DNA from: Macrostomum lignano
Lineage: Eukaryota
DNA: 64,000 nt
Assembly (NCBI GenBank): GCA_002269645.1
Contig: NIVC01002760.1
Coordinates: 1-64,000 of the forward strand
Reading direction: 5' to 3'
The notes beneath the pieces were generated by a model. It did not search any database. It was not told where the DNA came from and worked only from the letters and a program-made list of their open reading frames with translations. Both the position numbers and the translations under genes were made by a program. Below are positions 1 through 57,872 of the stretch, piece by piece. The stretch's first letter is position 1. Each line of letters opens with the position of its first letter.

Positions 1-2074
1 TCTTGAAGAAATCTGTTATGTATTGTTGTTGGAATTCACGTTTCTCACGTTGGGCTAGAGTCCTATAGTATTCACTCTCTGTTGCGGCAGTGTAAATTTC
101 TCTAATAAGCATAAATGTTTTTTCCTCAGTTTCTAAAAATTCATAATTCTCTCAAAGAAGTGAGCAAACCAATTACATTCTGTATGAATTCATTAGTGTT
201 TTCAATTACGCTTTTCGATCGATATATTTCACCCTTTGTTTGCTTGAAAATTTCTAGTAGGTGTTTCATCTCAGCAAACTTATATTTATCTTAAACTCCT
301 CACTTTTAAATATGATCGGCTTTATAAATGTGTTCTCGCATGATCAATGATGTCGGTATCTGTTGTATATTTGCAGGTAATTAATATTTATAATTCGTCT
401 TTCTGCATCTCCAATATTTTGTCTAAAGTCAGGCTTGTTATTACATTCGACTATAGGGTTGTGTAAAACGACATTACACTGGCTTGAATATAAATTTCTA
501 GCTTGGATAACCCCACCACCAGTTAGTAATTTTATTGATGCATTGTTCAAGACACCACTTACTTCTTGACTGATAACCAACCTCTTTTTATTAATTTGTG
601 CTAGGGCTGGTTGTGGCCTGTCTATTCTTATTGGTAAATTCAAAACATCAGGACTCAGTGGTGCTGCATAATCAGATCCTAGAGTTCTAAGAAGTAGGTT
701 GTCCTCAACCCCTTGCCATTTCCACCAGCGCCATCAAACATTATAAAGTTTTCAACATTCTTACCCATTAGAGCTGTGGCTATAACGGATTCCCAACTTT
801 TTCTATTTTCTGGATCGGGATGAATTTGGTTATGCAGATTAACAATGAAGCCATAGTCGTAATCACTCACTCCAAGTACATCCGAGTAATTATATCCCAC
901 CGATTTAGTAACGTAATCGTCATATCTATACTCGCGAAACTCACCTGTAAGGAGGTCGTATACTCCATCGTTAAACCCTAGCAATTCCATTTCATGTCGA
1001 ATTCAATTTCATTGTTAGTAAACCTCTCTTTGAACAAAGTAGTTACCTGTTTGAGTTTGTTGGCTCCTTGTATTGAATTTATATTCTTTATTGTACTCTG
1101 TAGTTTCTTTTCAAGTGCTTTTAACTTCTCTTTATCATCAGCCGCCTTCTTAATTGCAATTTCGAGTCTAGTCTTTCGGTGGTTTAACTCACTGCTAACA
1201 AGTTCTGATATTTTAAGAAATATGTCATTTATACTACTTAGTTCTCTCCACTTATCATCATCAAAATAGTAAATACCATCGCTATTGTAAATTATATTAT
1301 TCTTCTTATATTCATAAACAAAGTTGGTTATGTTAACGTCAGTGAAATTATCATCAAGATACTCAATCCTACCATAGTAATCATATTTGCTTTTCCATTC
1401 CTTATATTTACAATAATTTTCTTCACTAGCCCATTTCTTCAACGTACCGATAGTAAGTCTGTCCTGTGCATCAGCAGAGCTGGTATTGGTGCTATTCCAC
1501 ACATTTTTACATGCCTCGGAATCGAACTTATCATAATTTACTTTTGACCAATCAGTGAATACTTTGTACATTTCATCACCACTGTCTATGTCGCGGAGTA
1601 TAAGTGCAACCTTGTACCAAGAATCATAGTCTTGGTTTTTGTGTTGTATTATACTTAACAACTTTGAAACTCCTTCACAACTGGGTGATGGAACGGTGCT
1701 TTTTAGTGCCTGTTTATCTTGTTCTTGGATTTCATTTTTATCCGTGGCTTTATTAATCTATTTATCTCATCAAGAATTACATCTGGCATGTCTATAAGTC
1801 CCTCGCACTTTGTACGTTTGTATTCCTTCATTTCACCATCCACATAATAGAAACCTGGTGGAGCAAATACTAAAGCTGGAATATCAAAACCCACACTTTG
1901 TTGAATCGTTACTTTCAATCCATCTACTTTGTTAAAGTAAAAGTGGTGTCCCTTGTTTGTCTGAACAACCCAATCACAATGAGTCATACACAGTTCATTC
2001 AACTCAGGGCATAGGTCAGCATTATCAATATCGATTACGGTTATATTTGAGTTTCTAGTATCTATCCAAATCAT
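1..2074 (-). CDS. PrimPol + PriCT-2 + D5/SF3 helicase multidomain replication protein, split by single-base frameshifts; the N-terminus probably extends towards ~2340
   Basis: 1703-2074: VIDID...TNKGHHFYF (AEP/PrimPol motifs). 978-1661: YDSWYKVAL...FTDWS...W (PriCT-2). 679-990: LGFNDGVYDLLTGEFR (D5_N) and Walker A GAGGNGKG. 344-643: KKRLVISQE...IKLLTGG...ARNLY...ECNNKP (SF3). One extra base in homopolymer runs at ~1740, ~990 and ~705 joins the frames. Confidence 0.9.
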
Positions 2075-8643: not shown

Positions 8644-10008
8644 TTATTCGACGCGGGTCATTTGATATTCACTGGTAACTTTTATTACATTCTTTGTTTG
8701 TTCAAGAATTAGTGCAAAAGCAGTCAGCTCAACATTTGTTGACTTCTTGATAAATAATTGAATATTCACTCCACTCTTGACCAGAAACTCATCTTGAGCT
8801 GTTAGATCAAAGCAAAAGATTGGATAGATGGTTAGAAAGTCTTGTTTATTGAATGGAGGAGTTACACCGAAACGGCTGCAGATGTCTTCGTACATTTCAT
8901 ACGCTCTGTGAATGTCTTGAGCTACTGGATCAATTTCAACATAATCATTCGGATACATCACCTGATTTAATCTGACTTGAAGCTGGGTTATTTTCACTGA
9001 ATTTGCTCCAGTTTTGTAAGACACATACTTGTGATCATTAACTATATATGATGGGTTGTTTACGTCATATTTGAAAGCTACAAAGATTGCAAGTGGCATA
9101 TTGGAGATGTTGGCTATGTTCCATGTATATGGACTTCCTTGAATGAGTTGTGGTGGAACCGTTACCCTCTCTGGAAATGATACTGTAATGTCCTTGTTGA
9201 GTGATTTTAGAAAAGCTGCTTCAGCACTGGGTGACAAAGTAATAGCAGGGATCCAAATCTCAAAGCTATTAATAGTTAACTTAGCTTCCGTCCCGGCAGC
9301 TCCAAAGAAAATTTCAGCATCGTTAGTCTTTCTTGTCCATGTGAATTTATATTTAATTCCTTTGCTAATCTTCTGCCAATCAAGGAACCCAATGAGAGGT
9401 GTTAATGATAGTTTGATTGTTCCACCTCTGTTTGGAGCATTAGTGACATTGTTATAATTTTCAAGCCTCCTAATGTATCCAGTATTCGAATCCTTCTTAT
9501 TGAGTCTATTTTTCATAGCGATTGCTGCAGTTCTCACAGCTTCAGCATCTGCGTTGTTTGCTAGAGGTATATCAGAAACAGTCCCAGCATCTCCAGTGTC
9601 TGGAATCCATCCGTATGCTTCTCCAACTTCATTCATTAATTTTGAGTACATTACGGACTTTAAGATTGTGTCATACTCTCCAGGATCATTATAGACTTTC
9701 TTTGTTCCTCCAATGTCAACTATGAGTTGAGAGAAAAGTCTCATAGGCCAATTATGTTCTAGAGTAATGTTCGTATTCAAGTCGGTGTTATCTCGTTGTG
9801 TTATTGAGTATTTTATACAACCGAATGCCTCTGACATGAGAATGTATGACTCTGTTGAATTGACTTCATGAACTATTTGACCTCCTGCAACATTGAGATT
9901 ATTAGTGCTACCTGGAGTTGGAGAAATCTTAATATAGTCTTCTTTCTTTTTGAAAAAGCTAAAAGTTTTGTCCTCATATATGCTCAGTATATCCTTTTTG
10001 TTCTCCAT
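8644..10008 (-). CDS. Double-jelly-roll major capsid protein (454 aa, intact)
   Basis: Intact ORF next to the ATPase and penton. Motifs LFSQLIVDIGG, LTINSFEIWIP, QVRLNQVMYP, YPIFCFDLTAQDE resemble Polinton MCPs. Confidence 0.88.
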   Translation of the reverse strand: MENKKDILSIYEDKTFSFFKKKEDYIKISPTPGSTNNLNVAGGQIVHEVNSTESYILMSEAFGCIKYSITQRDNTDLNTNITLEHNWPMRLFSQLIVDIGGTKKVYNDPGEYDTILKSVMYSKLMNEVGEAYGWIPDTGDAGTVSDIPLANNADAEAVRTAAIAMKNRLNKKDSNTGYIRRLENYNNVTNAPNRGGTIKLSLTPLIGFLDWQKISKGIKYKFTWTRKTNDAEIFFGAAGTEAKLTINSFEIWIPAITLSPSAEAAFLKSLNKDITVSFPERVTVPPQLIQGSPYTWNIANISNMPLAIFVAFKYDVNNPSYIVNDHKYVSYKTGANSVKITQLQVRLNQVMYPNDYVEIDPVAQDIHRAYEMYEDICSRFGVTPPFNKQDFLTIYPIFCFDLTAQDEFLVKSGVNIQLFIKKSTNVELTAFALILEQTKNVIKVTSEYQMTRVE

Positions 10009-10481: not shown

Positions 10482-10489
10482 TTTTAAGG

Positions 10490-10912
10490 TCAGAATTTCT
10501 TCAAACCATTGCCTTGTCTCAAAGACACTTGAGACTGTTCTGCTGTTCCTAGAGCCTTTTTAACAATATCTTGAATAGCCTTATTTGATTGAGAAGCTAT
10601 CTGTTGCTCTTCTTCCATTCTTTTCTTTGCTTCTTTATCTCTACGTTTCTTTTTAATATATTCCAGTTCCTCACCTGCTTTAGACATGTCACTGTATGAT
10701 TTCTTCGCATCGAATATGTTCTTCGCTGTGGTAGCTGTTTTACCTATTGCATCAGCTCCACTCACAATTTTACTTCCATGATTTGATAAAAAGTTTGTGA
10801 CACCACTGATCATATCACCAATTCCTTCACCCTCTTTATCAGCTAGTAGTTGTGAATCAGACGTTTCAATCTGACCTTTCGCCCGTTTGCAGTTTGTTCG
10901 ATAGGCGCTCAT
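10490..10912 (-). CDS. Small virion protein with a GEG-preceded amphipathic helix (pVI/cupiennin-like, putative)
   Basis: AAAAATG at 10912 gives 140 aa. KEGEG-IGDMISGVTNFLSNHGSKIV is amphipathic after a GxG site. The C-terminus is QGNGLKKF. Confidence 0.5.
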   Translation of the reverse strand: MSAYRTNCKRAKGQIETSDSQLLADKEGEGIGDMISGVTNFLSNHGSKIVSGADAIGKTATTAKNIFDAKKSYSDMSKAGEELEYIKKKRRDKEAKKRMEEEQQIASQSNKAIQDIVKKALGTAEQSQVSLRQGNGLKKF

Positions 10913-13104
10913 TTTTAGTTGAAAAATTTGCTGGTAGAAGCTGGGATTTGTAAAATGATCCAATAATTTCTTCTCCATTCTCATCCTCAATAATGTAGGT
11001 TATGGGATTGGAGTAAACTATTTTCTTTATCCTAAACACTTCTGAAATTTTCCAATATCCTCTTCGACCCTTTTCAAAGTGCTCCTTATATCTATAGATA
11101 TGAACTTTGTCACCTACTTTGAAGTTTGGTTTCCCATTTGAATACTCGAAAGTTGGCTTTGGTACTCGCTCAGGATGTTTAGATGCTTCTGAAGGAGTTA
11201 TCAGAATCTCAGAATGGATTGTGTTGTTGTATTTTTCAACAATAGCTGGCAATGTGTGGAGCCACTTCTGATTACCCTGTAGATCAAATTCAAACCAGAG
11301 TTTATTTGTGAGAGTACGATTGAACCTCTCAATCATTGCATTCTTGGACTCGCCATAAATTGAAAACATCTTGTTTATATATTCACCCTTTTCATCCTTC
11401 TTTCTAATGTTGTCTTTTGAAAACGAATATAGCTTGTACATATGCTGATTATAAAACTCCTTGCCTTCATCTACACAAAGTCTCTCTGATCGTCTTCCTG
11501 ATTCCTTAAATACTTTTTGGAAAGCTTCTGCAACTTCCGCTCCCGTCTTTGTTTTCAAAGGAACTGCCCAGGCGTAACGTGTAAAACCATCTATGATAGT
11601 GAGAGCATATTTGTAACCTCTTTCAGGAGGAAGGATAATAATATCTGCATGCCAAATTGTGTCTTTTGCATAGTGAATCATTTTTCTAAATACTCTTGGC
11701 TTTCGATATTCTTTATGCAATTTTACTGCATCTTCATAGCTAAGACCCTTACCATAAATTGTTAGACAGTCTATACAATTGTTGGGGTTGTGAGTATGAA
11801 TGCCTAATCCAAACCGAACTTTAGCCTTGATAATACGCTTTACTAGATTTCGAATGAGTCTCTCTTTCACAGACAAGTCACTGGTTGGAATAGCATCTAA
11901 ATCAGCTATCATTTTTTCATCAGCTATATGCTTCTTTGCTAGAGCTTCCTCTGGATTTGAAGAAGTGTTTTCAGCATCTCTATAGTTTTTGTCATGATAG
12001 TAAGCAGTCCAATCGATTGGGTTAATTGGTAGACTGTCATACCGAGGCCGGTCTGTAATTGGATTGAGTCTCTTGTCTAAATTTGTACCCGGCAGTTGTT
12101 CCTCAATCTTTCGAAAGAGGCTGGACTTTATCTTAAGGCTTCATCAGGATTGACCAGATCCTTCAGCCCCACCCCCATTAAGTCTCTGAACCTTCTCCAT
12201 ATCCTTGTCAACTTCGTTCGGACTTAGGAGCTTGGCTGCGGATTTCCACCATGTCCTCAAGCTTGTTACCATCGAACCATAGGTTCGCGGACGAAGTCCG
12301 ATTGGGAACAGGAATTACCTGTGTTCCTTCAGAAGATTTCTCAACTGAAGTGGTACTTGAGGCTGTTATTGACGTACTAGAATCGGACGGAGTTCCCGCA
12401 ATTTGAAGGTGTCGCCAATCACTAAGCACTTGTTTAATGTTGGTTATAATGTTTTTGTATTGATCACCATAAAGAAATTTCAATGCAAATTCTCCTGTTA
12501 TAAGGGTGATTCCATTGTCTAGTAAAATATTCTTAGGTTCCTTTGTAGTTCTATTGATGCATACATAATACAACTGATAGGTGGGATAAGAATTTTTATA
12601 GTCTAATAGTTTCTGATAATTCCTTTCACGACTTGATGAATTGTCCGTGTTATCAGAAGATTTAAGCTCTAATGCAATCTTTCGCTCAACGTGAACCAGG
12701 TCTATCTTTTTTACCTTCTCGAATCCAAAATAATTTTCTGCTAATATTTCATATAGTCTGCCTAGTCTCATTTGAATAACTTTAATCTTGTGTGAAATTA
12801 TTAACTCTTCTTGGAAAAGATCATGAAGAATTTGATCATGCCCAACCTTATCATCAATTGGTTTCAGAAGAATTTCTCGAATTGTTTGCTCCATTTTTAC
12901 TATAGAAACTTTAACAAGTGCTTATTTGATGACTAGCAAGGACATTGACTTCCTCACTCAGGCCACTACGTAACCTGCAAAAGAATACCCTGGAATATGA
13001 AGTTCTCCTGGGTATTTTCCAGTGGCGAAGATGGGTGGTAGTTTTGTTATAGCTGACTGAATATCTAAAGCATTTCCTAGAAATAATGGTTTACTGAAGG
13101 CCAT
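10866..13104 (-). CDS. Parvovirus-type PLA2 + DDE (rve) integrase fusion, 452 aa after splicing; exons 12973-13104 and 10866-12092
   Basis: Exon 1 is MAFSKPLF...GELHIPGYSFAG (44 codons). Exon 2 is PGTNLDKRLNP...IDWTAYYHDKNY...KHIADEKM...KAKVRFGLG, then IWHADIIIL, IIDGFTRYAWAVPLKTK, LCVDEGKEF, MIERFNRTL. Exon 2 is in frame and stop-free. Confidence 0.92.
12093..12972 (-). ncRNA. Group I self-splicing intron, subgroup IC1 (880 nt)
   Basis: The 5' exon ends in U and pairs CAGGU/GCCUG (P1 U.G), and the intron ends in omega-G. P AAUUGCGGG (12395-12403), Q AAUCCGCAGC (12235-12244), R GUUCAGAGACUU (12180-12191), S AAGAUAAAGUCC (12123-12134). P3 CACCUUC/GGGGGUG, P4 UGCGGG/UCCGCA, P5abc with GAAA L5b, P6a/b, P8, P9.0 AG/CU and P9 with a GAAA loop all form. 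Confidence 0.96.
12208..12894 (-). CDS. Intron-encoded PD-(D/E)xK endonuclease, Eco47II-family restriction-enzyme-like (putative homing endonuclease)
   Basis: It has its own AAAAATG and the motif IDLV...ALELKSSDNTDNSSS. The domain lies in the loop of P2.1 (12-bp stem 12913-12924 / 12423-12434). The C-terminal ~70 codons read through the ribozyme core. Confidence 0.8.
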   Translation of the reverse strand: MEQTIREILLKPIDDKVGHDQILHDLFQEELIISHKIKVIQMRLGRLYEILAENYFGFEKVKKIDLVHVERKIALELKSSDNTDNSSSRERNYQKLLDYKNSYPTYQLYYVCINRTTKEPKNILLDNGITLITGEFALKFLYGDQYKNIITNIKQVLSDWRHLQIAGTPSDSSTSITASSTTSVEKSSEGTQVIPVPNRTSSANLWFDGNKLEDMVEIRSQAPKSERS

Positions 13105-13529
13105 TTTATATATATAAAATTTACTATCGTTGAATTGGATGACACTTTCATATTGTATATACCTGAAATTGCATTAAATTGACCCGAGGATCCAACCTTT
13201 CTCATGGTTTTAGAGCTGGAATCGTGAAAATTGCACTTTTTAAAAAAAATAGAAAATCACAAAAAATCGCTGTTTTCAGACCATTTTCACCTGTTTTTAG
13301 TCATTTTTCAGTTATTTTTAGTGATTTTCAAAATGAGTGAGGGCATGAGGGCGAGGGCACCCCCCCTTTTTAAAAGTATAAAAAATCCGGAAATTCTGTC
13401 TTCTGAGAAATATACCACAGGCCAATGCCCCCCACATGCCCTCACCCTCAACACCCTCAGTCACAGATATATGTATATTTATATATTTTTATATTTATCA
13501 CACCCCACTTGAACCCATGACCTCCTGGT

Positions 13530-13628
13530 AGTAGTAGTATGTTATAAGGGGTTGAGTCATCCAGCGAGCTGGCGCGCAATGCGCCCGAGCAATAAGTGTG
13601 GCGCAACCCCTTATAACATACTACTACT
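13530..13628. repeat. Terminal fold-back: perfect 25-bp inverted repeat around a 49-nt GC-rich spacer
   Basis: AGTAGTAGTATGTTATAAGGGGTTG (13530-13554) is the exact reverse complement of 13604-13628. Confidence 0.95.
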
Positions 13629-14025
13629 CAGCTCAGCGCCGACTGCCGCGTCAGCTGGGTGAGTCCTGACTGAGAACTGCTGCCTGACACTGAAAATACT
13701 GAAAATATTGTTTGGCGAAATTTCATTGCGCTTTGATGATCGGCGCCCTGAAGTTCTCAGCAGCGCCGCTGTCAAGCGAGGGCGTCATGAATCTGTCAGT
13801 GCAGCTCCTCATGGCGACTCCAACCGCCCCATGGCGCCCCCAACCTCCCCATGGCGCCCCAAACTTTTCCGTGGCGCCTCCAAACTCCCCATGGCGCCTC
13901 CAATCTCCTTATGTTCCCCCAAGGCTCACCCACAGATCAATCTGCAAGGGCTTCTAATTTACCAGAGGGCACGCACAAAATTGACTCCGACAAGGCTCTG
14001 GCAATGGCCTGAGTTCATTCAGCCC

Positions 14026-14609
14026 ACACAGCTACAGCACACAGCTACAGCACACACAGCAACAGCACACGGCTACAGTACACTTAGCTACAGAACACAC
14101 CGCTACAGCACACAGCTTCAGCGCACACAGCTACAGCACACAGCTACAGCACACAGCTATACAGCACACACAGCTACAGCACACAGCTACAGCACACACA
14201 GCTACAGCACACAGCTACAGCACACAGCTACAGCTCACAGCTACAGCACACACAGCTACAGCACACAGCTACAGCACACACAGATACAGCACACAGCTAC
14301 AGCACACAGCTACAGCACACAGCTACAGCACACACAGCTACAGCACACACAGCTACAGCACACAGCTACAGCACACAGCTACAGCACACAGCTACAGCAC
14401 ACAGCTACAGCACACAGCTACAGCACACACAGCTACAGCACACAGCTACAGCACACACAGCTACAGCACACAGCTACAGCACACAGCTACAGCACACAGC
14501 TACAGCACACACAGCTACAGCACACAGCTACAGCACACACAGCTACAGCACACACAGCTACAGCACACACAGCTACAGCATACACAGCTACAGCACACAC
14601 AGCTACAGC
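14026..14609. repeat. CACAGCTACAG(CA)-type 11/13-bp minisatellite
   Basis: Direct tandem repeats; they account for the spurious long ORF 13708-14811. Confidence 0.95.
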
Positions 14610-15586
14610 ATGCAAATTATCCCTCATTGCCTCAATTCGCATCGCCTCAGACCCGAAGGCCCCCCGTTCCTGGAGCGCTGGGACGTCGTTCGTCTTATCG
14701 GCCGCGGAGGCTTCGGAGAAGTCCACGAAGTTCGAACTGACACGGGCGTCACGTGCGCTGCCAAGACTCTCAGAATGCCTGTACAGCTCGGTGATGAGCT
14801 GCCCTCTGTGAGTTCAGAAATCCACAGAGCTGTGGAGAGCGAGAGAAACCTGTGCCGACTGCGGCATCCCAACATCGTCAGGTTCTTGCACATGGCTCAG
14901 CCGGAGCCCGCCACAGTCGTTGTGTTCATGGAGCTGCTGGACGGCCGGAGCTTGGAGAGGTTTATCGACAGCAAGCCGCTGGACGAGCCAAAGATTCGAG
15001 ACTTCAGCGAGCAGGTGAGCATTGTGCATCCTTGATGCTCCTGTTCCATGTTCCCATGAATGATGACTGCTCACTGACCAACCGCTCGCAGATCTGCCGC
15101 GCGCTGCTCTACCTGCACAGCCGGCAGCCTCCCGTGATCCACAGAGACATCAACTGCTCGAACATAATTGTTCATGCTGACAATACGCGAATCAAGCTGA
15201 TCGACTTCGGCCTGTCAATCAAGCTGGAGCAGTCAGTCAGCCACATGTCAGCCTCCACTCAGTCACCCAAAGGCACTCTGAACTTCATGGCGCCAGAGCT
15301 GCTCGGAGCGGGAGAGTCGGACAGCGTGCAGTACAGCAGAGAGTCGGACATCTGGGCGTTCGGCTGCTCGGTGTTTCAGATGGCCTCCGGCGCGAGGCCC
15401 TTCAGAGGCAACCAAAGCGTCTATCAGGTCGCCTTGAAAATTGCAAACAGTGGCGCCCCCGCCCTGCCGGACGGCCGGTCCGCAGAGCTGAGGGATTTCT
15501 ACAGCCGCTGCACCGCCATGGATCGCAGGCAGAGAAAAGACGCACAGGAGTTGCTTGAGCACGAGTTCCTGAGGAAAAACCTCTGA
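14610..15586 (+). CDS. STE/MAP3K-like Ser/Thr protein kinase, paralog 1 (intron 15015-15091; upstream exons not resolved)
   Basis: [17 protein letters not shown], intron CAG|GTGAGC...CGCAG|ATC, HRDINCSN, DFG, GTLNFMAPE, DIWAFG. Confidence 0.88.
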
Positions 15587-16084
15587 CTCTCAGTGCTAAC
15601 TTGAGTTGATTCTAACACTGTCGGGAGATTTTGGAGCTTTATGTTAGGCGTAAATCGAACGCGAACAAAATTTCTTTTTCTAAAATTAGCCTACACTTCT
15701 ATCCTTTTAAACTCTTCCTTATTTCATCGCCATGGCGCTTTAATTGCTATGAAAGCAGGTTCCATTTTTAGAGCGGTAGCTGGCCATTCGAAAAGCTGAG
15801 AAACAGAAAATTTCTTGAGTAGACAGCGAGAGGACAAAAAAGGAGGGCACCATCCAGCATCCAGCACCCACACAGCACCAACGCAACCGAAATCATTTCC
15901 ATTCTACATCACAGCTTATGATCTCCATTCTCCATCAGATGTATCCAATTTGTCATATCGTTTATTACTTGAACTGCATGGATTTTAAGCCACATGGGCA
16001 TTACTTGTGCTCAATCCGATTTGCTAGCATGGGCACATGCAGGGCTTCTGATGGAGCTCTATTTTTTCTCAATTGGAATTGATG

Positions 16085-16880
16085 GAGAATGGAGAAGCTG
16101 AGCTGAGACCTGATGATGAATAGAGAAGCTGAGCTGGGATCTGATGGAGAATGGAGAAGCTGAGCTGGGATCTGATGGAGAATAGAGAAGATGAGCTGGG
16201 ATCTGATGGAGATTAGAGAAGCTGAGCTGGGATCTGATGGAGATTAGAGAAGCTGAGCTGGGATCTGATGGAGATTAGAGAAGCTGAGCTGGGATCTGAT
16301 GGAGATTAGAGAAGCTGAGCTGGGATCTGATGGAGAATGGAGAAGCTGAGCTGGGATCTGATGGAGATTAGAGAAGCTGAGCTGGGATCTGATGGAGAAT
16401 GGAGAAGCTGAGCTGGGATCTGATGGAGAATAGAGAAGATGAGCTGGGATCTGATGGAGATTAGAGAAGCTGAGCTGGGATCTGATGGAGATTAGAGAAG
16501 CTGAGCTGGGATCTGATGGAGAATGGAGAAGCTGAGCTGGGATCTGATGGAGAATGATGAAGCTGAGCTGGGATCTGATGGAGAATAGAGAAGCTGAGCT
16601 GGGATCTGATGGAGAATAGAGAAGATGAGCTGGGATCTGATGGAGAATAGAGAAGCTGAGCTGGGATCTGATGGAGATTAGAGAAGCTGAGCTGGGATCT
16701 GATGGAGAATGGAGAAGCTGAGCTGGGATCTGATGAAGAATGATGAAGCTGAGCTGGGATCTGATGGAGAATGATGAAGCTGAGCTGGGATCTGATGGAG
16801 AATAGAGAAGCTGAGCTGGGATCTGATGGAGAATAGAGAAGATGAGCTGGGATCTGATGGAGAATAGAGAAGCTGAGCTG
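16085..16880. repeat. 31-bp minisatellite
   Basis: GAGAAGCTGAGCTGGGATCTGATGGAGA(A/T)T(A/G) tandem array. Confidence 0.95.
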
Positions 16881-19146
16881 TCGAGTCGATAATTCTCAGC
16901 AGTCAGAGCCTCTGCAGTAAGGAGGCTGTCAGCTCTACGAGTAATTGATGCAGAATGAGGTGTCAGCCCCTAGCAGGAATTTGAATTTATAAATTAGCCT
17001 AGACTTCTCACCGGTTTCAGAGATGTACTTCTAAACATTTTTCGACATTCTCTGTTCGAGCACCAGCCTGTCCCAGTCCCAGACCCGCCCTATAAAATGT
17101 GTTTTATTTACCTGCCACATTCTGTCTACATGACCCAAATTCGCAATCACACTGGCCTCCAAAAGGCCAATTATGAGTGCGAGACTCGCATCTGAAAACT
17201 CGCAGGCAGCGAATTTTACAGTCATTGAGCACAGGCGCAATGCAAAGCAGTGAATGGTTTGAGCGGGGCAGGGTTAGCGCTCAAGCAGTTTGTCTCTGTG
17301 CCACCAACCCCCCAGCCCAAAGAATTTGCTGCGAGTCCTCTTTTGACACGCGTTCGCAGGCTGCTGGCTCGGCCCTCAAACCTCAGCTTCGCCATTGTGC
17401 TCTGGGCATTGAGCTTGGCTGGTCTGGAGCTGCTTGGATGGCTGGGTCGGGGCGAGTACAGGCCTCATTCTTTCGCTTCGATGTGCTCACAGCCCCAACC
17501 CCAGGCCTCAACTCATGGCTGGGCGCCTCAGAGGAAGGATATGCAGAGGCCGCACACAGCAGCCCAGCTGCACACAGCGGTGCCTCATCAGCTCTGCCCC
17601 ATTGTCCAAAACCCCAGCACAAATCTCACCAGCTGTGTACCTCTGCCTTTCCTTGCCGAATGAGCTCAGCATCTCTGCTGCATCAGTTTGATCTTCTGCT
17701 GCTCATTCTGAGCTCTGACAGATGAAGAGCGAATGGAGGCTGGGAGAGGCAGAGAGTGGCTGCAAATTTGCTGATGCCACTGCTGAGAGACTGTAGCTAA
17801 TTAAGGACAGGTGCGAGACTGTTGCTAATTAGGGACAGGTGGGAGACTGTTGCTAATTAAGGACTGGTGGGCGAGCGGTGCACAGAGAACCTCGAAATGA
17901 GCGGCCCAGCAACTAAGCTGAGTGAGAAATTCTCAGAGACTTGCGGCTGCAAGCCTGCTGCAGGGAAGGAGTTGGAGAGGGGGGTGGGTGAGAGGGAGAT
18001 GGGGGAGAGGGAGATGGGTGAGAAACACAATAGAATAAGATGGTCATGGCACATAAGCAATGGATGTGTGCATGAGATATGGGTCATGGCACATGAGCAA
18101 TGGATGTGTGCATGAGATATGGGTCATGGCACATGAGCAATGGCTGTGTGCATGAGATATGGGCCATGGCACATGAGCAATGGCTGTGTGCACATACTTT
18201 ACATTGCTGCACTGCAGTGCCATCCGATATTGATCTGGCAGAGAAACTGAAACAGCAATGATTTCATCTGAGCAATGCAGGTGAATAAAAATGATTAATG
18301 CAGATCTGCTATGTCAGTCTGTTGCACCCAGTAAATCAATCCAAATATTATCAAAGTATAAAGATTAGCAAAATAAGCTCTGTACAGAATGTACAGTACA
18401 GAATGCACAGACTCATTTGAGCACAGAGCGCCATTGATGAGGTGCCACAGCAGGGTGAAGTGAAGGCAGCAAAGTCAGACACAAATTCATGCAGACTGCA
18501 GTCAAGCGAGCCATATTCAGTACTTGCAGTAGCACAGCTGGGTGCACCGTGTGCAGACTTGGTCAGTGAAATGCGGGATGCTCAGGCGGTGCCCACAGCG
18601 GCTCATTTGGAATCTTCCTGACATCTGCAGGATTAAAAATGTTGTCCAATCAGCTCTGGGGTGTCCAATGAATGTCTGAAATGGATGGGCAGCCCCATTG
18701 AAGCCTCTGAATTGACCTGAACTACAAATGACCTTGTATGGCCCCACAGACCTAATCCTGACCATTTATGACCCCACAGACTTTAGCATTACCTTATATG
18801 ACCTCATAGACCTAATCATAAAGCTAGACGATCCCACATACCTAGTCAAGATCTTGGATGACACCACACATTTAGCCATGACCTCAGATGGCCGAAGACC
18901 TCAAAGTGACCTTATATGACCCCACAGCAATAGAAAATAAAAGGCTCTCGAGATTTTGAAAAAACGCCTAAAATAAACCAATAATTATAATGTCACTCTA
19001 ATTGACCAGGCTCTCGAACCCGCTCTTTAACCGTGACCTCAAATGACACCAAAACTTGAAAAACCTGGAATCCCGTAACTTGACCCATAATGACACTTGC
19101 ATCAAGAGCGTGACCTCAATTGACCCTGTCGCCCCCCTCACCCGTG

Positions 19147-19230
19147 TGCTCAGGTGGGATCTGGGTGTGCTCAGGTGGGATCTGGGTGTGCTCAGGTGGG
19201 ATCTGGGTGTGCTCAGATGGGATCTGGGTG
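19147..19230. repeat. 21-bp minisatellite, about 4 copies
   Basis: TGTGCTCAGGTGGGATCTGGG repeats. Confidence 0.9.
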
Positions 19231-19518
19231 GGCTTCTTATACACGAAGCATTAGCAGAGTTTAAGTGCCGCCTTGGCGACCCAGACATGTTTAACGGCTC
19301 ACTCGTAAAACTCTTCCTACAGCGTTGCAGCTCCGCGTCCCCGCCCACGAGCTCGACAGAGCGTTCAGCCGCCTGGGCCGACTCCAGTCGGACTGCCTGA
19401 GGAGACTCGGTGAGAAATGATGAGGCGACAGTTGGTGAACTCGTCAAAACCTGCAGTCTGAGCGCAGGCAACCAGCTAAAAGGCACCTGGCACTTCATGG
19501 CACCCGAGGATGCTCATG

Positions 19519-19906
19519 GCAGAAGGGTGGTGACGCAGAAGGGTGGTGACGCAGAAGGGTGGTGACGCAGAAGGGTGGTGACGCAGAAGGGTGGTGACGC
19601 AGAAGGGTGGTGACGCAGAAGGGTGGTGACGCAGAAGGGTGGTGACGCAGAAGGGTGGTGACGCAGAAGGGTGGTGACGCAGAAGGGTGGTGACGCAGAA
19701 GGGTGGTGACGCAGAAGGGTGGTGACGCAGAAGGGTGGTGACGCAGAAGGGTGGTGACGCAGAAGGGTGGTGACGCAGAAGGGTGGTGACGCAGAAGGGT
19801 GGTGACGCAGAAGGGTGGTGACGCAGAAGGGTGGTGACGCAGAAGGGTGGTGACGCAGAAGGGTGGTGACGCAGAAGGGTGGTGACGCAGAAGGGTGGTG
19901 ACGCAG
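19519..19906. repeat. Homogeneous 16-bp minisatellite, about 24 copies
   Basis: GCAGAAGGGTGGTGAC repeated essentially without variation. Confidence 0.95.
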
Positions 19907-19984
19907 TAGACTGAGTGACTCCAAAGTACTCAGAAAGCCCCAAGCAACACAAAATTCATCGAATTCCTTCATTTCATGTTTCAG

Positions 19985-21279
19985 CGCCAAGAAGCAGCTG
20001 GACCCCAGCTTTACCGACTGGGACTTCATCCTGCAGGACAACAAGAAGCAGCTCATCGGCCGTGGCGGATTCGGTGAGGTGTACAAGGCCCTCACAGACC
20101 GCAATCAGACGGTGGCCGTCAAGGTGCTGCCCCTGAGCGGCACCGGCCAATCGAGGAAGCTGCAGAAAGCCGTCGAGATGGAGAAGCGGGGAGTTGAGAT
20201 CATCAAGCGACTCTCGCATTCCAACATTCTGCAGTTCCTCAAGTGCGAGCAGAAGTCGGATGGGCTGTACATCTTCACCGAGCTGGTCTCGGGTCACAGC
20301 CTCTTTGAGCTGATGCAGCGTCAGAACAAGCCGTTCAAGGAGTCCGGGGTCAGGGACTTCTCCAGACAGGTGCGTCTCTGAGTTCTCTGGCATTGCCTGG
20401 CATGAGTGGGGTGTGGGATCAGTGTGGGATCAGTGTGGGGTCAGTGTGGGATCAGTGTAGGATCAGTGTGGGATCAGTGTGGGATCGGTATGGGATCAAT
20501 GTGGATCAGTGTGAGATCAATGTGGGATCAGTATGGGGTCAGTGTGGGATCAGTGTGGGATCAGTGCGGGATCAGTGTGGGATCAGTGTGGGATCAGTGT
20601 GGGGTCAGTGTGGGATCAGTGTAGGATCAGTGTGGGATCAGTGTGGGATAAGTGTGGGATTAGGGTGGGATCAGTATGAGATAAGTGTGGGATCAGTGAG
20701 GGATCAGTGTGGGATCAGTGTGAGATCAGTGTGGGTGGGATTAAAAATGAATTCATGCACTCTCATGACTGCTCAAAACTGCTCCACCTGCAGATCTGCT
20801 CAAGCCTGAACTTCCTGCACTGCCAGCCAGAGGGCGCCATCTTGCACCGCGACATCAAGAGCTCTAATATTATGCTCACCAACGAGGGCGTCATCAAGCT
20901 GATCGACTTCGGCCTCGCCAAGGAGATCGTCGGCACCTGCGGCCTGAGCACAGGCGTCGATCCCAAAGGCACCCCCTACTTCATGGCGCCCGAGCTGTTC
21001 ATGGGCGAGGGCGATTCGATTCCGTATTCAGCCAAGACCGACGTGTGGGCCTTCGGCTGCACCGTGTATGAGCTGACGGCCATGCAGCCTCCTGACGCGA
21101 ACGTTCAGCACTTCCGGATCGCCGTGCTGAGGTGCGGAGGGCGGGCGATGCCTCGGATTGCGGACGGGTTCTCAGCTGGCCTGAAGGACTTCTACCTCAG
21201 GTGCGTAGACTATGACCCGAGGAAGCGAGCGGACACCGCGGAGCTGCTGCGGCACAGCTTCCTGAGTGCCTCATCGTGA
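19985..21279 (+). CDS. STE/MAP3K-like Ser/Thr kinase, paralog 2 (exons 19985-20369 and 20794-21279; upstream exons likely)
   Basis: [47 protein letters not shown]. The intron is at the same Q|IC position as in paralog 1 and contains an 11-bp GTGTGGGATCA array. Confidence 0.9.
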
Positions 21280-21354
21280 CTGCGAGAGCGATGGGCTGTG
21301 AGGGAGCGGAGCGGCTCTTGGAGCGGGCGGTTTTGATTGCTGACGTTGTCTGCT

Positions 21355-21600
21355 TTTGTTTATCCGATTGACCTTTTTGTTTATCCGATTGACCTTTTTG
21401 TTTATCCGATTGACCTTTTTGTTTATCCGATTGACCTTTTTGTTTATCCGATTCCCCGTTTTGTTTATTCGATTGCCCTTTTTGTTTATCCGATTGACCT
21501 TTTTGTTTATTCGATTGCCCTTTTTGTTTATCTGATTGACCTTTTTGTTTATCCGATTGACCTTTTTGTTTATCCGATTGCCCTTTATGTTTATCCGGCT
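21355..21600. repeat. 21-bp minisatellite
   Basis: TTGTTTATCCGATTGACCTTT repeats. Confidence 0.93.
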
Positions 21601-22097
21601 GCTTTGTTTGTTCGAACTGCTCATTCTGCTCATTCAGATTTTGAATGTTTAATTATCGTTTTGTCTATCGATCACCCTGCTGCTTCCCGATGCCCGGATC
21701 AATTATCCAATCACGGTTTTGTTTATTCGGCTGCGATTCGGAATTCAAATTTTATTTATTTGACTGCCGGGTTTGTTTTACCGGTTGCTCCTTTCAATTA
21801 ATGAGACATTTTTGAGCTGACTCGAGTGCCCTTTCAGTTCCAAGCTGATCAATGTTGATTTTGAAACTCTGGCACAAAGCCAATCACAATTTCCCCAATC
21901 TGCTCAGACTGCTCAATACCTACTCCAGATTTTGTGTTGCCGAGAATTTTTCACATTTTTCAGCCACCGGTTTGGCGCTTTTTCCGGCACTGATTTTTGT
22001 TTTTGATTTTTGGACTGACTTTTTATTAGCAACTGTTGGAGCAGGAAGTCCAGCGCTTACTCAAGACTTCTCAGTTAAATATACAGCCACCGCTTGG

Positions 22098-22328
22098 CTT
22101 GCCGTGACCCGCTGTGTCCTGACTTGCCGTGACCCGCTGTGTCCTGACTTGCCGTGACCCGCTGTATCCTCACTTGCCGTGACCCGCTGTGTCCTGACTT
22201 ACCGTGACCCGCTGTGTCCTGACTTGCCGTGACCCGCTGTGTCCTGACTTGCCGTGACCCGCTGTGTCCTGACTTGCCGTGACCCGCTGTGTCCTGACTT
22301 GCCGTGACCCGCTGTGTCCTGACTTGCC
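22098..22328. repeat. 25-bp minisatellite
   Basis: CTTGCCGTGACCCGCTGTGTCCTGA repeats. Confidence 0.93.
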
Positions 22329-23263
22329 AAGTCAGGGCCTTGGATGGGATGTCTCGGCGATTCTAGTCGTCTGGGCCGACAAGTTATCGATTGCAGTCGG
22401 TTTGGTCCTGAGCTGAACTTCGGGCTCCATTCTGGTGCTTAAGTTGACATCTCCTTTCTCATCAACTCGATTTTTATTTCACAGTACGAGTATACTCATC
22501 AAAATCGAAAGGTCGCCATCACAGAAGATTCCGTCTGTGCATGGTCGCCACTTTGGAGAGTGCAGGGTAAAGTCTCTCAATCTTGCGAGTGACGCAACGT
22601 AGCTACGCCACGGTCAGCAGACTTGTGTTGAGGAATGAAGTTGGGGGAGAGGTGTGCGAGGGTTGGACGGCCGGATTAAAGATTGGCGACTTCTCAATGT
22701 TGCTGAGTACGAGTATATGTCATCACAGCGCCATTTGCCCTACCTTGCATATATATCACCAATAGTAAACTATCATCACACACTACTGTTCAGAGTAGTT
22801 AAACCAGCCAAGTTAATGTTTTACAGTGACTGTAAAATCAACATGTTTTACGTAGTGCCGTTATCTTGCAAAGCAGTGCCCGCTATTCAACAAGTAGCAA
22901 TAAAGTTAGCTTAAACATTACGATGGCTTCAATTTTTTTGATAAGCCCTCCTGCAAGGCTGGTTCGTAGGTTTCCGAGTTAAATAGTGGCAACGTTTTTA
23001 TTATTTAAAAATGTATAAATTTCTTCTCGTGAAATTTCTGCCGACATTGTGAGTTATTGATAGGATAAATGGGGCTCTGGGAGGACGTCAGGTCAAAGCA
23101 ATGGACGAACAAGCGAAAAATTTACAATTTAAAAATTGCTAAACAAGAGTTATTCAAACATCCGGGAGGTACCAAGGAGGCAAATAGTTATATTGTTTTG
23201 ATATTGTTTCTGGGTTTGCAAAAGTAATAATGAAGCAATTCACTCATGGATTACTAAAGTAGA

Positions 23264-23913
23264 AGGACGCAACACTTGAAATCTATGGAGAATGTTTTGA
23301 AGGCCAATTTTCGCCGACAAATACACTACGGAGATAGGAAGTTTTCATTTTTCAGCACAAAAATTGTTTTTGCTTTCGATATGAGGCAGATCCAATGTTC
23401 ATCTTTGGATATTTTGTGCCTTTCTTATAGCTCTATCGATAATCATAAAGCTTTTCGTTCAGAAAATTAGAATTATATGTTAAGTTTTAATTCTACGTAC
23501 ACTTCCTGTACCTAAAAATCATTAAAGTGGATGGCACAGCTCGAATCTTTGATTTTATGAATCTATTACATCATCTCCGTTACACATTTTGCTACACAGT
23601 CGGCTAAGAATGACAATAGACTCATAAAACCAATGAGCTGAGCTGTGCCATTTTAATGGTTTTAGGCACAAAAATATACAATTTTACGTAGAAAAAAAAT
23701 TATGAAAATTTATGAATACCAATAGCGCTATAAGAAAGGCACAGCACATCAAAAAGATGAACATTAGGTCTGCCTCCTATCGATAAAGAAAGTAATAACA
23801 ATTTGTGTGCTGCAAAAAAATAAAAACTTCCTATCCCCAGTGTATTTTTCTGCTAAAAGTGGCCTTCAAAACATTTCCCATAGATTTCGGGTCACAATCG
23901 GGTGTCGCGTCCT
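23264..23913. mobile_element. Non-autonomous foldback/MITE-like element with long TIRs, copy 1
   Basis: The ends AGGACGC...GAAATCTATGG..AATGTTTTGAAGGCCA and TGGCCTTCAAAACATT..CATAGATTTC...GCGTCCT are inverted over more than 200 bp. A homologous copy lies at 43564-44214. No ORF. Confidence 0.8.
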
Positions 23914-24174
23914 GTATATACGTTGCTTTAGTTGTCCTTGCAATTAACCATGCTAACAAAGGTGAAAAAAAGTTATTCAAAGCAAAGATAATTAAGTGTC
24001 GATTCTTGCACAGGAAGCTGAGGCACTCTGCGCCACACGGCAGTTTTGATCAGTGTGTACCTTTGCAGCTGCTTTGAACCTTCAAAAATAGCTGCGGCCT
24101 TCGTACCTGAAATTCATCAAGTGCTCAATGATTTTTGTGCAGAAGAACTGGACTCATCAATTTTCAATGTTAAC

Positions 24175-24666
24175 TCACCGCCGTAGCAGCTCAGCCAGTT
24201 CGCTCTTTCCCTTCTCAACAGCCAGCTCAAGTGCGGTTTTGCCGTCTCTGTCTTTCAGACTCCAGTCCGAACCCGCGTCCAGCAGAACCCGACCGACCGA
24301 GGCAGCGGTGGCAGCTGGAGCGTACTTCGCCGCCAGCATGAGCGGCGTGTAAGACGAATGATCCCTGGCATTCGTCAGGGCCCCGGCGTCCAGCAGAGCG
24401 GAGGCTGCGACCGAGTTGCCACTGCGGGCAGCGTAGTGCAGGCTGTTGTCAGCTCCGACGTAAGCGCAGGTGGGGTCAGCCAGCTGCAGCAGCTGCTTCC
24501 ACAGTTCCTCATCGTTGCACTTGCTATTGCCAGCTGCCCACATCGCGGCGGTCCGACCCCATTTGTCAGGCAGGTCGCAGTTGTCGCGTGTCGCCATCCG
24601 CTGCAGTCGCCTGAAGTCGCCCGCTTCGGCAAAGCGCTGCAGCTCCTCTCGAACGGATAACTCCTG
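24175..24666 (-). CDS. Ankyrin-repeat protein exon
   Basis: GRTAAMWAA, NSLHYAARSGN, YTPLMLAAKY, GKTALELAV. The acceptor CCCCCAATTGCAG|GAG follows an (AGT)n tract. Confidence 0.8.
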   Translation of the reverse strand, partial: QELSVREELQRFAEAGDFRRLQRMATRDNCDLPDKWGRTAAMWAAGNSKCNDEELWKQLLQLADPTCAYVGADNSLHYAARSGNSVAASALLDAGALTNARDHSSYTPLMLAAKYAPAATAASVGRVLLDAGSDWSLKDRDGKTALELAVEKGKSELAELLRR

Positions 24667-24682
24667 CAATTGGGGGAGACAA

Positions 24683-24709
24683 CTACTACTACTACCACTA
24701 CTACTACTG

Positions 24710-24797
<88 letters not shown>

Positions 24798-24830
24798 TAC
24801 TACTACTACTACTACTACTGCTACTACTAC
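24683..24830. repeat. (ACT)n microsatellite
   Basis: About 49 ACT units with rare variants. Confidence 0.95.
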
Positions 24831-25022
24831 CGTGAGCTTGTACTATGGCTAATTACCTTAGGTGTCAGGCCCGAAATTAGACCACCGATAGTAACCACCA
24901 AGCGCATTTCCCTAAAAATCAAAACAAGGTTTAGACGCTATATGTTAAATAATGTAGGCTTCTACGTTTCTGTATGATTCTGTAGGATCTGTAGGATAAA
25001 AGTCAATCATTTTTCAACGTTT

Positions 25023-25679
25023 TTATTGACTACCATTCATTTCACAGCTCTCAACCCACCTCTCAATGTACCCAGCCAGCTCTTCATGCCCATTGCGCGT
25101 CGCAATGTCTACAGCTGTCAGAACGTTGAGGTCCTTCAGGCCAAGCAGGCGTTTCCGTTCGTTCTTCGGCTTCTCGGGTCCTTTGCCGCCGCCGTTCTGC
25201 TTAGGCAAGTCCGAACTCCCAGCTTCCTTCTTGTCGGTCTCTGTCCACTCAATGTGACTCCACTGCCGCAGCAGATGCAGCAGGTGCTTGGCGCAGCTCC
25301 AGCTTCCGGTTTGAGCCGCCTCCATCAGCGGGGTCAGGCCTTGGCTGTTCTGCAGCCACTTAGCATTGAAGGGCATCAGCGCCAGAAGCCGCACGTTGTC
25401 CTGTCGGGCTGCCAAATGCGCAGCCGTGTTGCCCGACTCGTCAATCGCTTTGGTATCGGCGCCAAGTTTAATTAAGTACAAAATGCACTTTTCAGCCTGA
25501 GCTGGAATTCTTGGCGAGTCGGCTGCTAGCATGAGAACGGTACGGTTGGCTTGGTCGGTTGTCGTCACAAGCTGACGAGTTTCCAGCCGCTGCACCTGGT
25601 CAAAGTCACCTTGAATGACCAGCTGTGCGACAGTCTGGAGCCGAGCAGTGGTTGCAGGTACATGCATTACCAATTGCAT
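25023..25679 (-). CDS. Ankyrin-repeat protein exon (may belong to the same gene as 24175-24666)
   Basis: NRTVLMLAA, GNTAAHLAAR, GLTPLMEAAQ, LTAVDIATRNGH. An upstream acceptor TCAG|ATG and a donor CAG|GTAAGA near 25716 are present. Confidence 0.75.
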   Translation of the reverse strand: MQLVMHVPATTARLQTVAQLVIQGDFDQVQRLETRQLVTTTDQANRTVLMLAADSPRIPAQAEKCILYLIKLGADTKAIDESGNTAAHLAARQDNVRLLALMPFNAKWLQNSQGLTPLMEAAQTGSWSCAKHLLHLLRQWSHIEWTETDKKEAGSSDLPKQNGGGKGPEKPKNERKRLLGLKDLNVLTAVDIATRNGHEELAGYIERWVESCEMNGSQ

Positions 25680-26639
25680 CTGACATCTGACTCGCTTACA
25701 GAATAATAAATCTTACCTGAACATCAGTTGTCATGCTTTATGATTTATGATGCTTCTCAGTTTGTATCAATCCTACGAATGCTCCAAATAACTCTCTAGA
25801 ACTGCGCCAATTTGGTTCTCCTGTCTTGACAAAACAGCAATTTTAGCACACATATAGCTAGTACGTAGCCTGTCTTGCAAAGGTTTATGAAGTCGTCATT
25901 TTACAGGGCCTTCCAATACCCTTCTTGTCTCTGCCTGTCTCTCTGTCTCACCCTCCTGTCTGTGTGAGGCCGTGCGGTGTGCCTGTCTGGAGGCTAAAAC
26001 TGTGTTTTCGTAAATAGATTCGTTGCCGCACAAGTGCTTGCTCTGTGTGCAGATAAGATTATTATTGTACGATGCAAATGAATCTTTAACCGAAAGAAGT
26101 CGGCAGTATGTGTAAATGACAGACCCCGCGGCTTTTCTATTCATTACTACTTGGCTACACAGAGATCCATATTAACTTTCTACGCACTTTCATGCAAAGC
26201 AGTCCTACTAGAATGCATGATTATTTGGACGCGTTGTAAAATTAGAAAACTCATGGGAAGTATATATCAGAATTAACATCTACACTACAGAGGGGGTAAA
26301 CAAGCCGATATTCGTGTGCATCTGTCGCCAAAATTTGTTTTGCTGGAACTATATGAGTTTACTTTAGTAATTTAATTTGGAATCATATGGCCGCCAAAAC
26401 TTGCGGGCAGGCAACTAAATTATCTTTGGGTAGAGCTGTAATTCGACAGAATTTACTTCAAAAACAGCCTGAAAAATTTTCTTACCCCTAAACTTGGACC
26501 TGCCGAGCATTCTAATCTCCATCATGCACCTCAATGCAAAATCTGCCTAAAAAGCGTCATTTGAGTGCTTTTCGGCCGACCAACAATGAGTCTTGCTACC
26601 GGTGCCCCCACAGCGGTGCACCGACAGAGCCGAGGCCAG

Positions 26640-27230
26640 TGGGTCTGGACTCTGGATGAAGCTGTGAGGCTGAGTAGGTCTGGATGAAGCTGTGAGGCTG
26701 AGTAGGTCTGGATGAAGCTGTGAGGCTGAGTGGGTCTGGATGAGGATGTGAGGCTGAGTAGGTCTGGATGAAGCTGTGAGGCTGAGTGGGTCTGGATGAG
26801 GATGTGAGGCTGAGTGGGTCTAGATGAAGCTGTGAGGCTGAGTGGGTCTGGATGAGGATGTGAGGCTGAGTGGGTCTAGATGAAGCTGTGAGGCTGAGTG
26901 GGTCTGGATGAGGATGTGAGGCTGAGTGGGTCTGGATGAGGATGTGAGGCTGAGTGGGTCTTGATGAAGCTGCGAGGCTGAGTGGGTCTGGATGAGGATG
27001 TGAGGCTGAGTGGGTCTAGATGAAGCTGTGAGGCTGAGTGGGTCTGGATGAGGATGTGAGGCTGAGTGGGTCTAGATGAAGCTGTGAGGCTGAGTGGGTC
27101 TGGATGAGGATGTGAGGCTGAGTGGGTCTGGATGAGGATGTGAGGCTGAGTGGGTCTTGATGAAGCTGCGAGGCTGAGTGGGTCTGGATGAAGCTGTGAG
27201 ACTGAGTGAGTCTGAATGAAGCTGCGAGGC
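26640..27230. repeat. 28-bp minisatellite
   Basis: GGTCTGGATGA(A/G)G(C/A)TGTGAGGCTGAGT(A/G) array. Confidence 0.93.
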
Positions 27231-29817: not shown

Positions 29818-29864
<47 letters not shown>

Positions 29865-29865
<1 letters not shown>

Positions 29866-29954
29866 GGGACAAGAAGGCACCCTCCGAGCGAACACCATGG
29901 GGTCCCCGGACGCCCCCGGTCCGCGCAACAGGACCGAGGCGACTAATGGCCTTC
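29865..29954 (+). ncRNA. HDV-like self-cleaving ribozyme at the LINE 5' end
   Basis: Nested double pseudoknot in the correct order: P1 GGGGAC/GUCCCC, P2 GAAGGC/GCCUUC, P3 CCC/GGG, P1.1 CC/GG (L3 starts UCC), P4 CGCC..CGGUCC/GGACCG.GGCG, J4/2 CUAAU. G1 coincides with the element boundary. P1 is 6 bp and L3 is atypically long (16 nt). Confidence 0.75.
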
Positions 29955-57830: not shown

Positions 57831-57872
57831 GAGTACAATTTGGGGCTTGTAAAATATTGTATCTCAACGCAG

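Follow-up and report, generated by a model that had tools for sequence, protein, structure and literature searches.

In the portions of a review considered here, nuclear group I introns are placed only in the rRNA genes of microbial eukaryotes, with homing endonuclease genes (HEGs) carried in P1, P2, P6, P8 or P9 (PMC3679873). Introns of the Rfam family RF00028 are described, in the part of the paper at hand, from Polinton-like viruses of Rhodomonas, Paulinella and Desmodesmus (PMC12220804). In the accessible text of a preprint on nematode Polintons, group I introns come up solely as the potential origin of an HNH domain (10.1101/2023.08.22.554363), and in that of a further report they are raised by analogy only (10.64898/2026.10.13.758929). 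No description of an intron in an animal Polinton, or of an intron replacing a methylase, was found in the literature searched, most subscription papers lying outside its reach. Here we describe a 64,000-nucleotide stretch of the genome of the flatworm Macrostomum lignano (contig NIVC01002760.1 of assembly GCA_002269645.1; hereafter the window), which begins within an endogenous Polinton whose phospholipase A2 (PLA2)-integrase gene is interrupted by a predicted self-splicing group I intron. A first-pass annotation, made from the letters alone, had supposed such an intron to be new; this holds for animal Polintons in the literature searched, but the intron by itself is less new, given the protist cases (PMC12220804, in the part at hand). 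What appears new, within the literature searched, is the animal host and the pairing of the intron with a restriction-type nuclease that lacks a methylase and with the loss of its likely site from the element.

We propose that this Polinton has a restriction enzyme but lacks the cognate methylase, and that the group I intron stands in for the methylase. The nuclease would be translated from its own start within L2.1, the loop of intron helix P2.1, and would cut GGNCC. Selection would have purged all other GGNCC sites from the viral genome, leaving the copy in the PLA2 Gly-Pro-Gly motif, which could not be shed silently because Gly-Pro codons always spell GGNCC. The intron would split this last site in the DNA and, by self-splicing, rejoin the codons in the RNA, making its carrier immune. 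An intron-less Polinton in the same cell would suffer a single cut at the insertion site and be repaired from the intron-bearing copy (homing), and DNA with many sites, such as that of rival Polintons, of a helper or competing giant virus, or of the host, would be damaged. The 5-bp cutter would act as a single-site homing enzyme in its own genome and as a weapon elsewhere. The intron may guard the virus against its own nuclease, because it occupies the only cut site that was not mutated away. That it serves both as homing target and as methylase-free immunity, through predicted splicing and cleavage, we consider probable. The full proposal is a bilaterian methylase-free restriction system, built from a restriction enzyme of a giant-virus-type restriction-modification (R-M) system, a genome emptied of sites and an active ribozyme that hides the last one, and giving immunity, homing and a weapon; its ribozyme would have to work in animal cells, often with a terminal A. 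This larger claim we place a little above even.

The interruption is an insert of 880 nucleotides (12972-12093, minus strand) that follows a U, ends in G and separates the codons of GYSFAG from those of PGT; its removal leaves a 452-codon open reading frame (ORF; 44 plus 408 codons). The letters agree with the first-pass annotation on each of these points. Both borders are set by natural intron-less alleles that run uninterrupted through the site (L019, L131, L136, L157 and L158). At least 24 intron-less alleles were recovered from the same genome by pattern search, so that intron-plus and intron-minus states, for which a survey had been suggested, are both present. Two alleles fetched with the gene start (L157 and L158) have a single open frame across the site and a match to the PLA2-like family PF08398 (E 2e-7).

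The proposed group I fold was recovered by the covariance model RF00028 (Intron_gpI), which matches 12485-12102 with 88.9 bits (cut-off 50; E 2.2e-21), the sole Rfam match in the window. As had been pointed out, P7 reads GACUU/AAGUC where the Rfam consensus has GACUA/UAGUC; it pairs 12186-12180 with 12128-12123, and 12184:12124 is the guanosine-binding G-C pair. The P2.1 duplex (-23.4 kcal/mol) is the best among 543 windows, the runner-up reaching -16.6, and plain minimum-free-energy folding gives weak support (z -1.88 for the core and -0.68 for the 5' part). Subgroup IC1 is defined by P2/P2.1, P5abc and 11-nt receptor features and by a P9.1/P9.2 extension. P2, P2.1, P5abc with an A-rich bulge, an L5b tetraloop and an 11-nt receptor in P6 are all present (bulge and receptor read by eye), but the intron ends 8 nt past P9, and P9.1/P9.2 are absent. 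The complete IC1 core first reported therefore stands only in part, and we call the intron IC1-like. Of the GAAA loops reported with it, L9 is GAAA and L5b is GAGA.

Conservation of the fold was counted with the structure drawn on the window copy and 43 aligned natural copies, 39 of them distinct (the window, 18 further copies of its family A, 23 of the family B described below and one from a metagenome); the count does not include the P1 extension, distal P2.1, one pair each in P5 and P9, and four introns of a third type, C. Over 81 helix pairs, 3,109 of 3,142 cells pair (98.9%) and 28 pairs show two-sided change, figures that are support rather than a probability because few lineages account for the changes and a single member served to draw the structure. 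Slid-register controls gave 37-47% pairing, with two-sided change in 3-9 pairs. Three P7 pairs are swapped between families A and B, the U.G pair of P1 is present in 39 of 39 distinct copies, and the last base is G in 18 of 19 family-A copies. Judged by sequence and predicted fold, the insert is a genuine group I intron and resides in an endogenous virus of an animal, and its self-splicing is predicted to be guanosine-dependent. That it would act on an mRNA made by Pol II in the nucleus, as the first-pass annotation proposed, is likewise a prediction. Among 24 listed sequencing runs, none was on record as RNA holding the stretch. When contigs of four runs (three presumed RNA and one presumed DNA) were aligned to 10400-13950, the exact-border joint was not listed among them, and contigs can show the presence of such a joint, not its absence. 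A skip from 12089 to 12980 in runs X20 and X9 was rejected as splicing, since ten other letters lie between, the same as in a genomic intron-less allele.

Overlooked by the first-pass annotation were a 228-residue ORF within the intron and the element-wide loss of the site that its product is likely to cut. The ORF begins in L2.1 and continues through the ribozyme core. In an AF2 model, residues 1-166 form a confident compact fold with no added DNA-binding part, and the tail encoded by the ribozyme core is disordered. The top structural match among 48,161 chains is EcoO109I (Z 9.7, rmsd 3.6, 163 aligned residues), and Foldseek matches AvaII (E 4e-4); EcoO109I recognizes RGGNCCY and AvaII GGWCC. 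Eco47II homologs are assigned GGNCC in the part of the source at hand (PMC10305163). The segment E76-L-K78 is invariant across 16 sequences, and D65 nearly so. Ratios of nonsynonymous to synonymous substitution rates (dN/dS) are 0.11-0.13 when the families are compared with each other and 0.13-0.37 for diverged pairs of the same family; two near-identical pairs gave 0.71 and 1.30, from few changes. These values indicate that the nuclease ORF is under purifying selection, and the product is best read as an Eco47II-like restriction enzyme fold and predicted GGNCC cutter.

Distant relatives of the nuclease, at ~30% identity and several of them located on contigs of giant viruses, are arranged tail to tail with a C5 methylase. 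The scanned neighbour genes of distant viral relatives were C5 methylases in 15 of 15 cases, and 75 of 89 loci hold a methylase motif. No such motif occurs in the 18.2-kb family-A element, and Pfam found no methylase among 20 window ORFs and four ORFs of a sister copy (L145), family-B elements being covered in part. No Rfam intron lies near 14 of 15 nuclease-relative loci, the only exception being L031, a metagenome contig outside this genome with an intron and nuclease at the same Gly|Pro position. Of 32 palindromes counted in the viral R-M loci, GGSCC shows the strongest depletion, and GGWCC is not depleted.

GGNCC is absent from the element: none was found where 19.2 were expected in 18,209 bp (window 1-13628 and the far end of the copy on contig C67, each counted apart; Poisson P 5e-9). 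Among all 1,024 5-mers, only the four GGNCC words have a count of zero, and other NN[W/S]NN palindromes occur at 0.68-2.4 of expectation. The Gly-Pro dipeptide, whose codons necessarily read GGNCC, is likewise missing from the element proteins (0 versus 7.8 expected in 4,162 residues), and the intron lies exactly at Gly|Pro of the PLA2 motif. In five of five intron-less family-A copies the empty intron site is the only GGNCC in the part of the element examined; the 7 other hits are confined to three of 18 intron-bearing loci, which are apparently deleted or decayed copies (L008, L017 and L018). Element parts of families B and C contain no GGNCC in 89 kb (19 loci; 125 expected), which is not independent evidence because the copies are related. 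As a small control, four nuclease-free PLA2-integrase loci of other families (1.3 kb each, longer flanks having entered host DNA) do hold extra GGNCC sites. A specificity for GGWCC only, with resistant intron-less alleles (none of 24 has GGT), was dropped, as GGSCC is missing from the element too.

A nuclease search yielded a second group at ~66% identity, family B, whose integrase is 60% and whose capsid 24% identical to those of family A. In 19 of 20 fetched family-B/C loci the nuclease gene stands by itself, 150-640 nt upstream of the site, and the intron found at the position of the window intron is ORF-less and measures 299-337 nt; the 20th has no integrase gene. The family-B enzymes branch from within the intron-encoded ones in a tree of 34 nucleases, and for that reason the family-B layout looks like an exit from the intron rather than a precursor stage, a direction read from the tree. 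Nuclease and intron occur together in 19 family-A and 19 family-B/C copies, an intron with no nuclease nearby in eight of eight core-only loci, and neither in five family-A copies and the one family-B copy found by pattern; among the loci examined there was no nuclease without an intron and none beside an intact site. In family B the intron is close to fixation, being present in 40 of 40 scored matches, with one intron-less allele recovered by pattern. On a tree of exon 2, intron-less alleles are scattered among intron-bearing ones (5 changes, one well-supported branch), a pattern that is weakly suggestive of exchange.

Several side observations concern these introns. Seven family-B introns (among L111-L144) are identical to one A-ending intron, which suggests recent spread. 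Type C (L115, L117, L123 and L126) shares the 5' border, P2, P2.1, P5abc and P9 of family B; its P3/P4/P6/P7 core, 3' border and exon codons differ, and Rfam gives it no score. We take its core to be IE-like. RF00028 also fails to detect several of the family-B introns, and it detected none of the type-C introns tested (3 of 18 and 3 of 6 loci). Five database integrases (P0034, P0036, P0041, P0044 and P0058) start in intron-like sequence just ahead of PGT, and nucleases P0003-P0017 read into ribozyme motifs; several of these proteins lie on contigs of equal size (4853, 14527, 10272, 18491 and 65222), which hints at the same cassette in other hosts.

The element is endogenous, as first proposed, and is integrated at many places in the chromosomes of this free-living flatworm. 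In the 764-Mb assembly at least 46 matches to the region were found (40 of 302 candidates scored), at least 28 of them extending across the intron, with 83-100% identity and differing flanks; RF00028 scores above cut-off at 28 places, and 12 copies are ~99-100% identical. Target duplications of 6 bp flank five of eight two-ended copies (4 distinct sites), and contigs C67 and C952 carry Wnt genes as well as an intron-bearing element, the Wnt exon on C952 being 99% identical to a UniRef protein of Macrostomum lignano. The stretch was found in 20 of 24 listed runs from eight studies under a single organism code. A mis-joined non-animal contaminant, which the sharp GC step at 13628, the start of the contig inside the element and the unmatched flanks of three of the eight two-ended copies might suggest, is refuted by these copies, duplications, Wnt contigs and runs, and retains practically no probability. 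The unmatched flanks are probably assembly swaps between near-identical copies. Two-ended copies on C67, C5112, C3947 and C2232 have flanks seemingly exchanged between contigs, which suggests assembly errors.

A number of points weigh against the proposal. Its support comes from sequence and predicted structure, from which we infer both splicing and cleavage. A GGNCC cutter would hit host DNA every ~460 bp, and tight control or a separate compartment would be needed. The genome still contains at least 29 intron-less alleles whose site is intact (24, one, and overlapping divergent families). Identity to EcoO109I is only 14%, GGNCC specificity being argued from family likeness and site loss; the Atlas neighbours of the nuclease include HinfI-family (22%) and ApaLI-family (11%) clusters; and in 89 distant R-M loci (L021-L030 and L032-L110) GGSCC occurs 60 times versus 143 expected, GGWCC 303 versus 347. 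The loss of GGNCC could also stem from another party's enzyme. An ordinary mobile intron would then suffice: its nuclease would have become a homing enzyme for a long site with GGNCC at its centre, and the sites would have been lost to an outside enzyme, for example the R-M system of a helper giant virus that was also the source of the gene. This would accord with the occurrence of the nuclease family and a methylase on giant-virus-type contigs, with the abundance of GGNCC in host DNA, and with the high specificity known for homing enzymes (PMC3943268, in the part at hand), but the compact 166-residue restriction-type domain leaves no extra part for reading a long site. An outside enzyme, moreover, has to be reconciled with two families of such different capsids that both lack GGNCC and both carry the nuclease, and with the extra sites of the four nuclease-free loci. 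We regard this explanation as rather unlikely.

Further points touch the activity of the intron in its present host. In 17 of 23 family-B introns the terminal base is A, not G; these introns do retain P9.0 and the P7 G-C pair, exon 2 remains open in seven of the 13 A-ending family-B copies that have it in full, and a Coxiella intron is reportedly without a terminal G, to go by the title of a cited reference. In family A, exon 2 is entirely open in just seven of 19 copies. An internal ATG at 11912 opens a 348-residue frame with a complete integrase core, so that integrase could be made without splicing. The A-ending introns, the few fully open exons of family A and the internal frame could be accounted for by a real intron that has lost its activity in the animal, derived from an ancestor that infected protists, with copies spreading by means of the internal-ATG integrase or of intron-less helpers. 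Set against it are the near-complete pairing and the two-sided changes, much of which arose between or within two families of this very genome, the invariant U.G pair, the 12 near-identical copies and the near-fixation of the intron in family B, and we judge it improbable. Finally, in-frame GT/AG pairs lie within 25 nt of the borders (for example donor -2 with acceptor +16), so the spliceosome might remove the insert by cryptic sites, the ribozyme fold being a relic. Splicing at such pairs would remove or alter the PLA2 motif, which is conserved, the actual borders of the insert do not read GT-AG, and the catalytic core covaries; this possibility appears very remote.

Should the methylase-free restriction system be borne out, it would represent a new kind of nuclease self-protection and a simple path from restriction enzyme to homing enzyme, in which a short site is made unique rather than the enzyme more specific. 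Well over 60 intron copies in a protein-coding gene of flatworm chromosomes stand against reviews that, in the portions considered, place nuclear ones in microbial rRNA genes only (PMC3679873). Whether group I ribozymes can splice mRNA in animal cells may thereby be put to the test in an animal that can be kept in culture. A live nuclease, apparently under selection, would imply that these animal Polintons encounter other DNA genomes inside cells, a point of relevance to whether animal Polintons are real viruses or satellites of giant viruses. Furthermore, the natural series of nuclease inside, beside or absent, of terminal G or A, and of two core types at one site provides a data set on intron evolution.

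The features of the window are collected in the table below. The element is identified as a Polinton because it has an integrase (PF00665 match in the window), a jelly-roll capsid protein, a primase-helicase and, in a sister copy, a protein-primed B polymerase. The latter lies at the far end, outside the window, in the copy on C67 (L145), with an Atlas score of 0.97 to PF03175 clusters; Pfam alone finds only an endonuclease VII insert there, and a PDB sequence search with the polymerase piece gave no match. In that copy the polymerase is in pieces (L145:1436-4497), with the endonuclease VII-like insert, and the same element has both protein-primed polymerase and primase-helicase. Full-length copies, with terminal repeats paired up, measure ~18.2 kb. 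ORFs 8209-8622 and 5887-6318, which by their motifs are candidates for the packaging ATPase and cysteine protease, had no Pfam or PHROG match, and no relatives of the PLA2-integrase were found in IMG/VR.

Table. Features of the 64,000-nucleotide window; positions on the forward strand
Feature	Positions	Strand	Evidence or remark
Polinton, 36% GC, truncated by contig start	1..13628	-	no GGNCC anywhere
Primase-polymerase / D5-like helicase region, several pieces in window copy	679..2074	-	PF09250, PF08707, PF08706
Double jelly-roll major capsid protein	8644..10008	-	PF21738, E 1.7e-13
Exon 2 of PLA2-integrase gene, 408 codons + stop	10866..12092	-	begins PGT; rest of PLA2-like domain and retrovirus-type integrase core
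Group I intron, IC1-like, 880 nt	12093..12972	-	between Gly and Pro codons of PLA2 G-P-G motif
Predicted ribozyme core P3-P9.0	12094..12411	-	P4, P5, P5abc and two extra hairpins, P6/P6a, P7, P8, P9, P9.0
Intron ORF, 228 aa, Eco47II-like PD-(D/E)xK nuclease	12208..12894	-	Pfam PF09553 (RE_Eco47II), E 7e-7, above cut-off
P2.1	12414..12933	-	5' strand 12933-12913 with 3' strand 12434-12414; loop L2.1 ~480 nt with nuclease gene
P2 hairpin	12935..12958	-	two-sided changes in family B
P1 with U.G pair at 5' splice site (U 12973, G 12963)	12959..12977	-	pair counts over copies
Exon 1 of PLA2-integrase gene, 44 codons	12973..13104	-	ends ...GYSFAG
Terminal inverted repeat, ~590 bp	13048..13628	-	terminal hairpin 13530-13628; element end 13628
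Host DNA: kinase genes, ankyrin/ion-channel gene, LINE, simple repeats	13629..64000	.	110 GGNCC in 50 kb

Nine of 14 element genes (3425-13104, minus strand), the nuclease included, have TAAA(A)ATG-like starts, which may be a common promoter or start signal. At 3861-4448, three to four direct repeats of 132-135 nt stand beside a 31-nt inverted repeat, a possible origin or non-coding RNA. The hairpin at the element end is imperfect, with 49-nt arms, and is retained in other copies; in four loci (L015, L016, L017 and L020) another partial terminal repeat occurs ~0.9 kb in from the end, and additional DNA precedes exon 1. The host part holds two kinase genes with short introns (14610-15586 and 19902-21279, plus strand), an apparently intact LINE with RNase H (29789-34468, plus strand) and a long single-frame ankyrin and ion-channel gene (38327-43459, minus strand).

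The comparisons that follow hold for the parts of the cited sources at hand. Like the adintoviruses and animal Polintons, the element combines protein-primed polymerase, integrase, capsid, PLA2-like domain and terminal inverted repeats, but here PLA2 is fused to the integrase, and the sole mention of an intron there concerns a group II maturase in bidnaviruses (PMC8502044). The introns of protist Polinton-like viruses are the closest in kind, lying in endogenous elements and matching the same Rfam model with cores of 309-376 nt (299-337 nt in family B); they are said to be confined to a few protist groups, lie beside the capsid gene, and are reported with no nuclease identified and no borders or target analysed (PMC12220804). 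The core and scaffold architecture is that of nuclear IC1 and IE rDNA introns (PMC3679873), whereas the present intron lies in a protein-coding gene of an animal and has its nuclease ORF in L2.1. Chloroviruses also have a group I intron in a protein gene of a eukaryotic virus, together with short-site restriction enzymes thought to degrade host DNA, yet there a methylase is always adjacent, the enzyme is unrelated to the intron (group IB, in the TFIIS gene), and the virus infects algae and is not integrated (PMC7019647). With I-Ssp6803I, a PD-(D/E)xK homing endonuclease, the nuclease shares a gene placed in the loop of a group I intron, a target that the insertion destroys and a restriction-like active site, but the homing enzymes known to date are highly specific (PMC3943268). 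Here, in contrast, the evidence points to a 5-bp site made unique by avoidance across the element, the relatives belong to type II R-M systems, and the host is an animal. Use of an intron nuclease as a weapon on co-infecting viruses, in interference competition, has a precedent in gp210 of phage PhiPA3; that enzyme is a bacteriophage nickase of the HNH type directed at a single specific target, and avoidance of its site is not among the findings reported (PMC11620839). Family B, finally, resembles collaborative homing in its free-standing nuclease upstream of an ORF-less intron, but where that arrangement is seen as a precursor (PMC11296320), the family-B nuclease nests among intron-encoded enzymes.

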